Source: Eledone cirrhosa (taxonomy: Eukaryota). Taken from it: a DNA stretch of 64,000 bases. Each line of letters opens with the position of its first letter. Position 1 is the stretch's first letter. Where the stretch lies: the NCBI GenBank assembly GCA_964016885.1, contig OZ024744.1, forward strand, positions 78,058,001 to 78,122,000. Reading direction: 5' to 3'. The position numbers were made by a program, and so were the translations under genes. Under the pieces are notes generated by a model that was not told the origin of the DNA, did no database searches, and saw only the letters and a list, made by a program, of their open reading frames with translations. Shown in pieces: positions 39,296-41,862 of this stretch.

Positions 39296-39428
39296 TCTGT
39301 GTGTGTGTGTGTGTGTGTGTGTGTGTGTGTGTGTGTGTGTGTGTGTGTGTGTGTGTGTGTGTGTGTGTGTGTGTGTGTGTGTGTGTATATATAATATAAG
39401 ATCAAAAGATGGTTAAAGGAGTTCCATG

Positions 39429-39499
39429 TATTTTATTATGCGCATTTCAAAAACAAACATCATCATGCAATAATATTTGTGTTTTCATCAGATAAAACA
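39429..39499 (-). ncRNA. Type I hammerhead ribozyme (mirror copy)
   Basis: Reverse complement of 39606-39676. Confidence 0.65.
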
Positions 39500-39605
39500 G
39501 GAGAACATGATATGAAGGCTAAAAAACACTTGTGGATAGTGCAGTTTTAAATCAACATATCTGCACTATCCACAAGTGTTTTTTAGCCTTCATATCATGT
39601 TCTCC

Positions 39606-39676
39606 TGTTTTATCTGATGAAAACACAAATATTATTGCATGCTGATGTTTGTTTTTGAAATGCGCATAATAAAATA
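39606..39676 (+). ncRNA. Type I hammerhead ribozyme (minimal stem III)
   Basis: TGTTTTAT CTGATGA AAACACAAATAT...ATGTTTGTTTTT GAAA TGCGCA TA ATAAAATA; palindromic ATGCGCAT stem III. Confidence 0.7.
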
Positions 39677-39828
39677 CATGGAACTCCTTTAACCATCTTT
39701 TGATCTTATATTATGTATACTCCAGTCCTACAAACTGTAGAGTGCTTCTTATCTGATATCTGCATTGCTTTATTGTACTACAATAAAACTCACCTCCTAC
39801 ATATATATATATATATATATATATATAT

Positions 39829-40117
39829 ATCATCATCATTTCATTTTACGTCTGCTTTTCCCTGCTTGCAAGGGTGGGACGGGAACTGATTCTGGCTTGA
39901 TTTCTACAGCTGGATGCCCTTCCTAACACCAACCTTATTTACAGTAAGTGCTGGGTGCTTTTTTGCCTCCACGACCACTTTGCAGTGGAATGATATGGTC
40001 CCCAGTCCCTATCATCTCATTTCTACAGCTGAATAAACTGGAGCAATGTGAAATAAAGTATCTTGCTCAAGGAAACAACACATCACCCGGTCTGAGAATT
40101 GAACTCACAACCTTTCG
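39829..40117 (-). mobile_element. CORE-like SINE (family B), 5'-truncated within the tRNA head at (TA)n
   Basis: Matches 17095-17405. Confidence 0.9.
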
Positions 40118-40311
40118 ATATATATATATATATATATATATAACAGCTGTACTAAGAGTGAGAAATGAAATTTCGTTTCATTTTTTCCGTTTATCGTTTT
40201 CGGTAACCCGGCCGATTAACTTACTCTATATACAAATTAGGCTGCTCAGCCATTAATATGCATAAGGAAAGTATATACTTTCAGACGTTCAATCATCTTG
40301 CAGGAAGGTAT

Positions 40312-40354
40312 ACGTTGCTGACGATAGCTAATAAGCTTGAAACTAGTACAGCGT
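40312..40354 (+). ncRNA. Minimal type I hammerhead ribozyme
   Basis: ACGTTG CTGACGA TAGC-TAATAA-GCTT GAAA CTAG TA CAGCGT; ACTAGT palindromic stem III; GUA cleavage triplet. Confidence 0.8.
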
Positions 40355-41233
40355 TCCTTTGTCAGGGTTGAACAAATGAGCAACGATGGTTGCTAGACAC
40401 TCTACGGCTTAATTCGGGATGTTTGTTTACAAACACACCGAGCATTATAATAAATGTTCGGTGAATCCATACGTACATATATATATGTGTGCATGTATGT
40501 ATATATATAAATACATACTACTGTACGTCTGTATACATATATGTATGTACGTATACATACTTATATGTAAGTAACAGCCGTACTAAGAGTGAGAAATGAA
40601 ATTTTGTTTCATTTTTTCCGTTTATATATATATATATGTATATATATACAAAGATCGGAATTAAGAGTATTCCGCAGTTCACAGTAATAATAATAATAAT
40701 ATTAGCTCAAAGAAGAATAGAGAATTTTCTTCTGAGCTCAAATGCAAATATATTACACAAAGAGTAATGTGTTACACAGTGAGATGTGTGTAAAGAATTA
40801 TTACAAGTGAGTTTTACAGTTACTGTATAGAGAACAATATCTACAGGTTTAGCAATTAAATAGAAAAAAACTAAGTCAGAATCAAATCTCTGAATCATAG
40901 TTTTAAATTATCAACTTTATAACTATAAGTTTGCTGATACGAATCTCGCTTCGTTTCACCACTTCTTTGTGTAATATATATATATATATATATATATATA
41001 TATATATATATAAATAAATATAAGTATGTATACGTACATACATATATGTATACAGACGTACAGTAGTATGTATATATATATATATATATACATACATGCA
41101 CACATATATATATGTACGTATGGATTCACCGAACATTTATTATAATGCTCGGTGTATTTGTAAACAAACATCCCGTATTAAGCCGTAGTGTCTAGCAACC
41201 ACCGTTGCTCGTTTGTTCAACCCTGACAAAGGA

Positions 41234-41276
41234 ACGCTGTACTAGTTTCAAACTTATTAGCTATCGTCAGCAACGT
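41234..41276 (-). ncRNA. Minimal type I hammerhead ribozyme (inverted duplicate of 40312-40354)
   Basis: ACGTTG CTGACGA TAGCTAATAAGTTT GAAA CTAG TA CAGCGT on minus. Confidence 0.75.
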
Positions 41277-41394
41277 ATACCTTCCTGCCAGATGATTGAA
41301 CCCGACCGATTAACCCACTCGATATGCAAATTGGGCTACTCAGCCGTTAATATGCATAAGGAAAGTATATACTGTCTATACCACACTAATTCGG

Positions 41395-41449
41395 ACTGCC
41401 TGAAGAGGTCACAGCCAAAGATGGCTGTCACCGAAATATATATAGCAGT
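41395..41449 (+). ncRNA. Type I hammerhead ribozyme, canonical core
   Basis: ACTGC CTGAAGA GGTCACAGCCA-AAGA-TGGCTGTCACC GAAA TATATA TA GCAGT; G10.1-C11.1 pair, long stem II, ATATATAT stem III. Confidence 0.88.
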
Positions 41450-41632
41450 AATAAACGAAGCTAAATTTAAAACATTTGACTTATTTATTTTATTTTATAT
41501 ATATATATATATATATTTATATACTGTATATATATATATTTATATATATATATATATATATAAATATATATATATATATATATATATATATATATATATA
41601 TATATATATATATATATATATATATATATATA

Positions 41633-41862
41633 TATATAAGATCAAAAGATGGTTAAAAGAGTTCCATGTATTTTGTTATGCGCATTTCAAAAACAAATAT
41701 GATGATATTTGTTTTTGAAATGCGCATAACAAAATACATGGAACTCTTTTAACCATCTTTTGATCTTATATATTATGTATACTCCAGTCCTACAAATTGT
41801 AGAGTGCTTCTTATCCGATATCTGCATTGCTTTATTGTACTACAATAAAACTCACCTCCTAC
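41633..41862 (+). mobile_element. Shorter sister copy of the 39385-39800 palindromic cassette
   Basis: About 68-bp arms around GATG loop (41701-41704); same ~80-bp tail; (TA)n on both sides; truncated within the HHR. Confidence 0.85.

Follow-up and report, generated by a model that had tools for sequence, protein, structure and literature searches.

The two hairpin copies and neighbouring fold-back units

Two palindromic units lie close together in a 64,000-nt stretch of the Eledone cirrhosa genome (GCA_964016885.1, contig OZ024744.1, positions 78,058,001 to 78,122,000; hereafter the window), each folding back on itself and each ending in the same unpaired tail, and they raise the question of how one insertion comes to hold the same sequence twice, head to head, with a tail on one arm. 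Below, negative numbers are element positions, counted back from the last tail base (0) on the full-length copy L128. In copy 1, the pairing arms (39385-39544 and 39561-39720) are 160 nt each and 99% complementary, with mismatches at 39463/39642 and 39390/39715, and the 16-nt 'loop' between them is extra length of the left arm, with no spacer. This copy consists of a tail-less (inverted) arm on the minus strand (39394..39560; pLTR from the TA-rich inner tail boundary to -257), a tailed arm on the plus strand (39561..39720; 5'-truncated at about -241) and an 80-nt tail (39721..39800, plus strand) followed by (TA)n. Copy 2 has its centre at 41702/41703 and pairs out to 41632/41773 (about 69 nt per arm); its tail-less arm (41632..41702, minus strand) ends near -157, its tailed arm (41703..41782, plus strand) starts near -160 and holds the 3' half of the hammerhead only, and its 80-nt tail (41783..41862, plus strand) also runs into (TA)n.

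The two tails, flanks included, are 98% identical (family D7). (TA)n is found on the right side of both copies, and the sequence to the left of copy 2 reads as a (TA)n target microsatellite (41498..41631); no target-site duplication is resolvable for either copy, both insertion ends being inside (TA)n. The preliminary description of this DNA had reported the two palindromes with their common tail of about 80 nt, as well as three positions at which the copies differ from each other while the arms of each copy stay complementary, and all of this is present in the sequence.

Other fold-back units were observed in the window. The unit at 35890-36227 has a hammerhead core on the minus strand (35998) and a left tail-like stretch that resembles the tail of copies 1 and 2, and is probably a related Penelope-like element (PLE) family. 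Between the two copies lies an inverted pair (40287-40569 and 41015-41301, 94% alike) that adjoins a well-folding hammerhead motif (core 41400, plus strand, z -3.07) and likely represents another PLE family that is arranged head to head in this way. Right after the (TA)n of copy 2, at about 41920-42050 on the minus strand, the sequence resembles a PLE 3' end and includes a minimal motif of the hammerhead kind, then comes a purine-rich stretch that may be its ORF (minus strand). Further imperfect palindromes, some of them in TA context, are found at 21349-21606, 30042-30140, 32420-32649, 48085-48393 and 62207-62515.

The parent element

The last 26 nt of the tail have 10,770 exact matches in the 3.0-Gb genome compared to 0 for the reversed control, so the recurrence of the tail is not due to chance. 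Some copies extend upstream into a 3,709-bp unit (tail to tail) with a 794-aa ORF that is open in two loci (L130 and L128) and contains RT and C-terminal GIY-YIG domains, read from the motifs YRDD and LIY..YFG; a Pfam scan of this ORF gave nothing significant, and 34 homologues were found at E<=1e-20. Both loci show the order pLTR plus tail, ORF, pLTR (a partial tandem with a period of 3,709 bp), and in full-length copies the 80-nt tail stretch lies between the pLTR and the 5' UTR, which is followed by the ORF start. The parent PLE anticipated in the preliminary description, with this tail downstream of an RT/GIY-YIG ORF, was thus found.

The two window copies are short insertions of this PLE, which fits the Hydra clade by the following sequence features: DKG is altered to DKT in the ORF, a CxCX5C linker is present, the CCHH motif is absent, CxxC and CxH occur near the C-terminus, the element inserts into (TA)n targets, and the pLTR has a hammerhead motif. 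The site of the RWK motif reads RWI in this element (among 7 aligned homologues, 3 have RWK and all have RW), and no named Hydra-clade protein was among the homologue matches of the ORF. A Naiad affiliation, considered from the endonuclease (EN) motif, was ruled out by the C-terminal position of the EN. The ORF also has an Asn-rich insertion between RT and EN (residues ~590-650) that is absent from most homologues and has a likeness to the N-rich inserts described for rotifer PLEs in the available part of PMC3846280.

The tail end is micro-heterogeneous: among 136 tail-end anchors, 87 run on as ATATATAT and 25 hold a few extra 5' UTR bases ahead of (TA)n. Multi-kb inverted insertions of the family were also observed (L130 as a whole, L125, L119, L126 and L109), with a tail at both ends in L126 and with most or all of the ORF in one arm in L130 and L125. 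Beside the full-length copy, L128:5511-7286 (minus strand) contains frames resembling what we take to be a Helitron-type helicase.

Arm geometry across genomic copies

We sampled the first 100 tail ends among the matches listed, all on contig C1, of which five are internal tandem tails and two belong to a single insertion, leaving 94 termini (eight anchor views, comprising such cases and duplicates, were dropped by name); exact tail matching favours younger copies. An adjacent inverted arm is found in 79 of the 94 termini, and two of the 15 without one ran off the fetched DNA. Together with the 10,770 tail ends, this bears out the earlier claim that such hairpins are seeded across the genome.

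The outer ends of the arms are nearly fixed. The tail-less arm has its outer end at -81 to -93 in 67 of the 74 cases in which the arm is not cut by the fetch edge, and only 2 of these 74 arms carry the tail, so that the outer start points of the two arms are 81-93 nt apart, i.e., at the two ends of the tail. Tailed arms range from 27 to >3,000 nt and the centres vary; the fold-back position had been expected to vary in the preliminary description, which had set the palindromes apart from MITEs with fixed terminal inverted repeats, and both views hold. Inner ends pile up at -253 to -259 (26/94 tailed arms and 31/79 tail-less arms). Among the 79 copies, the tail-less arm is longer by >20 nt in 30 and shorter in 12 (p 0.008), and the arms do not overlap in 12 copies; as an example, L085 has 29 nt of tail and a 1,028-nt inverted arm. 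Arms overlap by at least 30 nt in the pLTR in 56/79 copies, and a geometry of the L1 type, with abutting cDNAs that lack a large overlap, was therefore rejected. The joints between arms have 0-6 nt of overlap (microhomology) or short fill-ins, and iterated short templated repeats of the arm end, resembling polymerase slippage in the course of end joining, were observed at the junctions of L018, L120, L121, L159, L171 and L199.

These unequal arms bear on the explanation first proposed for the palindromes, snap-back or template-switch synthesis, in which one truncated cDNA (or an antisense template, as in the available part of PMC3846280) copies itself and joins (TA)n at a TA-rich site. This would account for the co-variation of the arms and for the fixed outer end. 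A folded cDNA mirrors only what it already holds, however, so it cannot be the general rule for a family in which the tailed arm lacks sequence of the tail-less arm in 30/79 copies and has no overlap with it in 12/79, unless all of the non-overlapping copies were later shortened by deletion. In its favour, among the 43 off-pile copies 12 have arms that end within 20 nt of symmetry, compared to 1.3 expected by permutation, a number that also fits a shared broken RNA end; and local fold-backs are found inside L051 and L083. When one arm is fixed at the pile-up, the left-right asymmetry is 10 vs 4 and by itself falls short of significance (p 0.18). Overall we consider snap-back unlikely, and possible for a near-symmetric minority, to which the 12 off-pile copies and window copy 2 belong.

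21 of the 79 copies have nearly the same full-size palindrome, and at 8 of these 21 centres the palindrome has no spacer, which is what annealing of two self-complementary ends would be expected to give. The similarity of the full-size copies would also suit palindromic masters that spread as units in the manner of MITEs, with centre deletions arising later and gene conversion keeping the arms alike, and joint microhomology fits deletion repair too. The junction bases, however, differ among the full-size centres; we return to this explanation with the variant data. A MITE of constant length and termini was rejected on the range of tailed-arm lengths and centres given above.

That the palindromes are fold-back artefacts of reads or assembly is extremely improbable. 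The near absence of RAD-seq reads across symmetric centres (depth 0-3) would agree with an artefact, and is likely explained by PCR loss of hairpins. Against an artefact, the mirror ends at a fixed element site and leaves the tail and flank unmirrored, the arms differ by ~0.9%, and head-to-head joints from -257 to the inner tail boundary were found in 75, 87 and 109 raw reads (2-3 start places each) of three Illumina RAD-seq runs from one study, which represent other samples rather than the window's own loci; short-read contigs contain many such joints and some of the centre sequences. The preliminary description had allowed that the palindromes might be absent from raw reads: in these other samples the asymmetric joints are present, and the symmetric centres stay at depth 0-3.

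Each copy derives from one source

The earlier claim that each palindrome was made from one template at insertion is upheld by the comparison of arms within and between copies. Over 56 copies with at least 30 overlapping sites, the two arms of a copy differ at 68 of 7,675 sites (0.89%), as compared to 5.33% between copies, and discordant common alleles number 6 versus 303 expected (alleles were compared over -256..-96, with the homopolymer stretch left out). For long arms, the nearest sequence is that of the partner arm, and not of another copy, in 13/16 cases. The arms also match in pLTR class: combinations of an arm that stops at the pile-up with one that reads through number 1 and 0, whereas ~11 and ~10 are expected (p 6e-12; L039 was classed by hand as read-through).

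These numbers constrain double priming on two separate RNAs, which would come from the same source locus or the same RNP. The 6 discordant common alleles among the 56 copies could be read this way, strand displacement would be unnecessary, and the dimer predicted in the available part of PMC11167929 could hold two RNAs. Independent molecules, however, would not be expected to give arms that are nearly always from the same pLTR class, nor off-pile end points that are common to both arms, and we regard two separate RNAs as distinctly unlikely.

The likeness of the arms could also be kept up by conversion in palindromic masters. The arm haplotypes, however, are tied to alleles of the single-copy tail (96/107 at sites -125/-71; 15/15, p 0.067, for the weak test of tail linkage to a non-overlapping arm), and they recur in both short and kb-long copies. 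Linkage to the tail and recurrence in kb-long copies indicate that the common variants are inherited and not spread by conversion; the rates of rare variants in tail and arm are unable to separate the two. Nor are the shortened copies older, as judged by rare variants of the left arm (0.60% in 39 full copies, 0.93% in 30 and 0.43% in 18 tail-only copies, p 0.34; the 87 copies include sets chosen by junction base), and later deletion is therefore unlikely to explain the unequal arms. Shortened copies have a non-significant excess of arm differences (1.85% vs 1.03%, p 0.17 per copy), as palindromic masters would predict. Snap-back is disfavoured by a further test, in which rare variants common to both arms are equally frequent in copies whose arm ends are >300 nt apart (6/2,215 sites) and in symmetric copies (12/6,977; p 0.41).

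Two of the three co-varying positions in the window copies, at sites -115 and -155, are common subfamily alleles. For the third (-132), the genome contains 37 exact matches, and the sole pair among them is copy 2, which carries the variant in both arms as snap-back would produce. Among 30 other carriers, 10 have a partner arm that covers the site, and the partner lacks the variant in 9 of the 10 and has it in 1, which argues against palindromic masters; with all evidence taken together, these are highly unlikely. No source or sibling of copy 2, whose tail also has a variant at -65, was found among the 30 of 35 other -132 carriers. For copy 2 itself, the data do not discriminate between a private source variant, snap-back and conversion.

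The stop at -257 and the extra G

We looked at the base before the 19-mer that starts at -257 genome-wide, which is G in 2,329, A in 659, T in 1,758 and C in 7,673 matches (4,360 of the C cases read through into the parent). A non-parent base directly before -257 is found in 4,746 arms, compared to 442 arms one base further in. G makes up 49% of the non-parent bases at the -257 stop and 25% at the next base (22/88, a hand count over the first 100 among the matches listed; p 1e-5).

Inspection of G junctions covered 62 sites in 60 fetched loci. A lone G lies between the truncated partner and the arm in L136, L146, L178, L180, L181 and L186, and a G stands directly against G-free (TA)n in L176, L179, L182 and L187. 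The G signal is thus mixed: 31 of the 62 G sites are preceded by ATG, 9 are single-base centres, for which a templated C on the other strand is an equally good explanation, and some 6 represent slippage repeats.

For L1 insertions, an additional G is the sign of a copied cap (PMC4859970 and PMC11702581, parts available). Because of the pile-up at -257, often with an untemplated G as in L1, we infer that -257 is likely the capped 5' start of the sense RNA and that both arms are run-off cDNAs; the inner end of the tail-less arm of copy 1 would then be the RNA 5' end. A pile-up on both arms, together with the extra G, suggests two run-offs from a sense RNA end, which speaks against snap-back.

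The hammerhead motif

The pLTR carries a putative hammerhead ribozyme, for which self-cleavage is predicted. In copy 1, the type I motif spans 39606..39676 (plus strand; predicted cut after 39668) with an 8-bp stem I, a long stem II and a palindromic stem III, and type I with a palindromic stem III is the PLE type according to the part of PMC4209133 available to us. A mirror motif is found on the minus strand (core at 39491), so that copy 1 has the whole motif in both arms. Copy 2 begins downstream of the hammerhead core, and the name 'ribozyme cassettes' given in the preliminary description therefore suits copy 1 and not copy 2, which is without the CUGAUGA half of the core.

The core is intact in 77/87 arms, and 2,230 of 2,249 stem cells are paired as compared to 42-60% in slid controls, the structure having been derived from the same sequences; common variants in the stems keep pairing by one-sided changes only. 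An Rfam scan of the window gave 0 matches (none at the gathering score), and the folding energy of the motif is not beyond that of shuffles (z 0.76).

Two sampled copies hinted at the predicted cut site (-133) as the fold point. Genome-wide, 243 arm ends were counted at this site vs 167 and 117 at the adjacent bases, and 13 of 30 inspected ends at -133 are true ends, i.e., at most a weak bump, and the cut site was rejected as the fold point. The hammerhead thus does not set the fold point and is probably a passenger in hairpin formation, and the lack of an end pile-up at -133 agrees with the PLE in vitro study (available part of PMC11167929), in which ribozyme cleavage was not needed. A non-LTR retrozyme, which would consist of head-to-tail monomers bounded by cut sites, was also rejected: the units are head to head and the end count at the cut site is weak.

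Proposed integration mechanism and its implications

The hairpins are probably the result of two reverse-transcription events on one sense RNA, one from each cut end of the target, with the cDNAs joined head to head. The RT-endonuclease, probably as a dimer, would nick both strands of the (TA)n target; of the two target 3' ends, one would prime a cDNA from the end of the tail, and the other from the TA-rich boundary on the inner side of the tail. If both starts are in the 5' pLTR, each cDNA would extend to the capped 5' end of the RNA and run off there, so that the hairpins would not exceed ~435 bp; if both are in the downstream pLTR, kb-long inverted arms would result. Synthesis from the inner tail boundary, which lies further 5', would lead and the tailed cDNA would follow by strand displacement; trailing in this way would explain why the shorter arm tends to be the tailed one. 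The two cDNA 3' ends would finally be joined, either via microhomology of 0-6 nt or with short fill-ins. A PLE studied in vitro (PMC11167929, available part) introduces nicks in both strands and extends them, its RT has two start sites, located at the boundaries of the tail, and it is predicted to act as a dimer.

More tentatively, and with chances that we put slightly short of even, PLEs may by default integrate by such paired priming, in which an RT-endonuclease dimer makes two copies of a single capped sense RNA, each from its own fixed site and each primed by one target end. If this is true, the tail is the distance between the two priming sites, the second cDNA appears as the inverted pLTR, and priming within the 5' pLTR yields hairpins similar to strong-stop products by the thousands. 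The inverted-repeat-plus-tail signature would be explained across the class, the proposal of antisense self-priming would be replaced, and arm-to-arm divergence could date PLE insertions as LTR pairs do.

How PLE inverted repeats and tails are formed is named an open question in the available parts of PMC8557442 and PMC11167929, and a young, high-copy family provides genome-scale footprints that separate the models. The footprints lead to direct predictions for the bench: at which base the RNA starts, that a G derives from the cap, that each insertion uses one RNA, and that two nicks are required. Extrapolated from the 56 of 94 termini with overlapping arms, roughly 6,000 hairpins would be among the 10,770 tail ends; the family shows a retroelement that generates MITE-like hairpins afresh with each insertion, and hairpin copies could be mis-annotated as DNA transposons.

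Comparison with known systems

An inverted 5'-truncated copy plus tail is a stated hallmark of PLEs whose formation is called unresolved (PMC8557442), and self-priming on an antisense template was earlier proposed for the inverted copies (PMC3846280). In the literature searched, we found no double-priming model for PLE inverted repeats; the 2005 paper by Evgen'ev and Arkhipova, the 2006 one by Arkhipova and PMC5850863 may contain one. The units of EN+ PLEs (PMC8557442; PMC3846280) have the same head-to-head inverted truncated copy, one-arm tail, pLTR hammerhead, partial tandems and microsatellite target. The published tail is 30-40 nt, as compared to 80 nt here, and in the family here many copies are reduced to a pLTR hairpin in which the two arms stop at the same base. 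Arms that are unequal or lack overlap, as observed here, are not accounted for by the explanations published so far (antisense self-priming and EN-mediated resolution).

Hydra-clade elements (PMC8557442, section 11 and supplement S1/S2) share with our element the C-terminal GIY-YIG, DKT, CxCX5C, the lack of CCHH, CxxC and CxH, as well as the (TA)n target and a canonical hammerhead; they are generally <3 kb compared to the 3.7-kb unit here, and have RWK where our element has RWI. Hydra families are listed for cnidarians, octopus, sea cucumber, crustacean and hemichordate, and the hammerhead here matches none in supplement S2, which indicates a family separate from those listed there.

PAc (Poseidon, Anolis) in vitro (PMC11167929) likewise starts RT at two fixed sites, one at either end of the tail, makes and extends nicks in both strands of an AT-rich target, and has no need of ribozyme cleavage. 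The available part of that study gives no strand difference in start site and leaves the later steps open, whereas here the two sites are mostly split between the arms (the tail being on 2/74 tail-less arms) and the joined product is visible. Twin priming in L1 (PMC4859970, PMC11702581) is alike in that a further cDNA is primed on the RNA by the other end of the target, the inversion joint has microhomology or fill-in, and an extra G is found at full-length 5' ends. In L1, however, the second primer starts beside the end of the first cDNA, the pieces barely overlap and the outcome is a minority one, while here the starts are fixed ~80 nt apart, the same stretch is copied twice and an inverted arm is seen in 79/94 termini. 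MITEs are similarly short and high-copy with long inverted arms in TA context; the hairpins here differ in having no fixed length or centre, a one-sided tail, continuity with a retroelement ORF and no resolvable TSD. In sum, the structure of an inverted copy plus tail is known, and what is new is the family, plus copy statistics that favour a specific integration mechanism.
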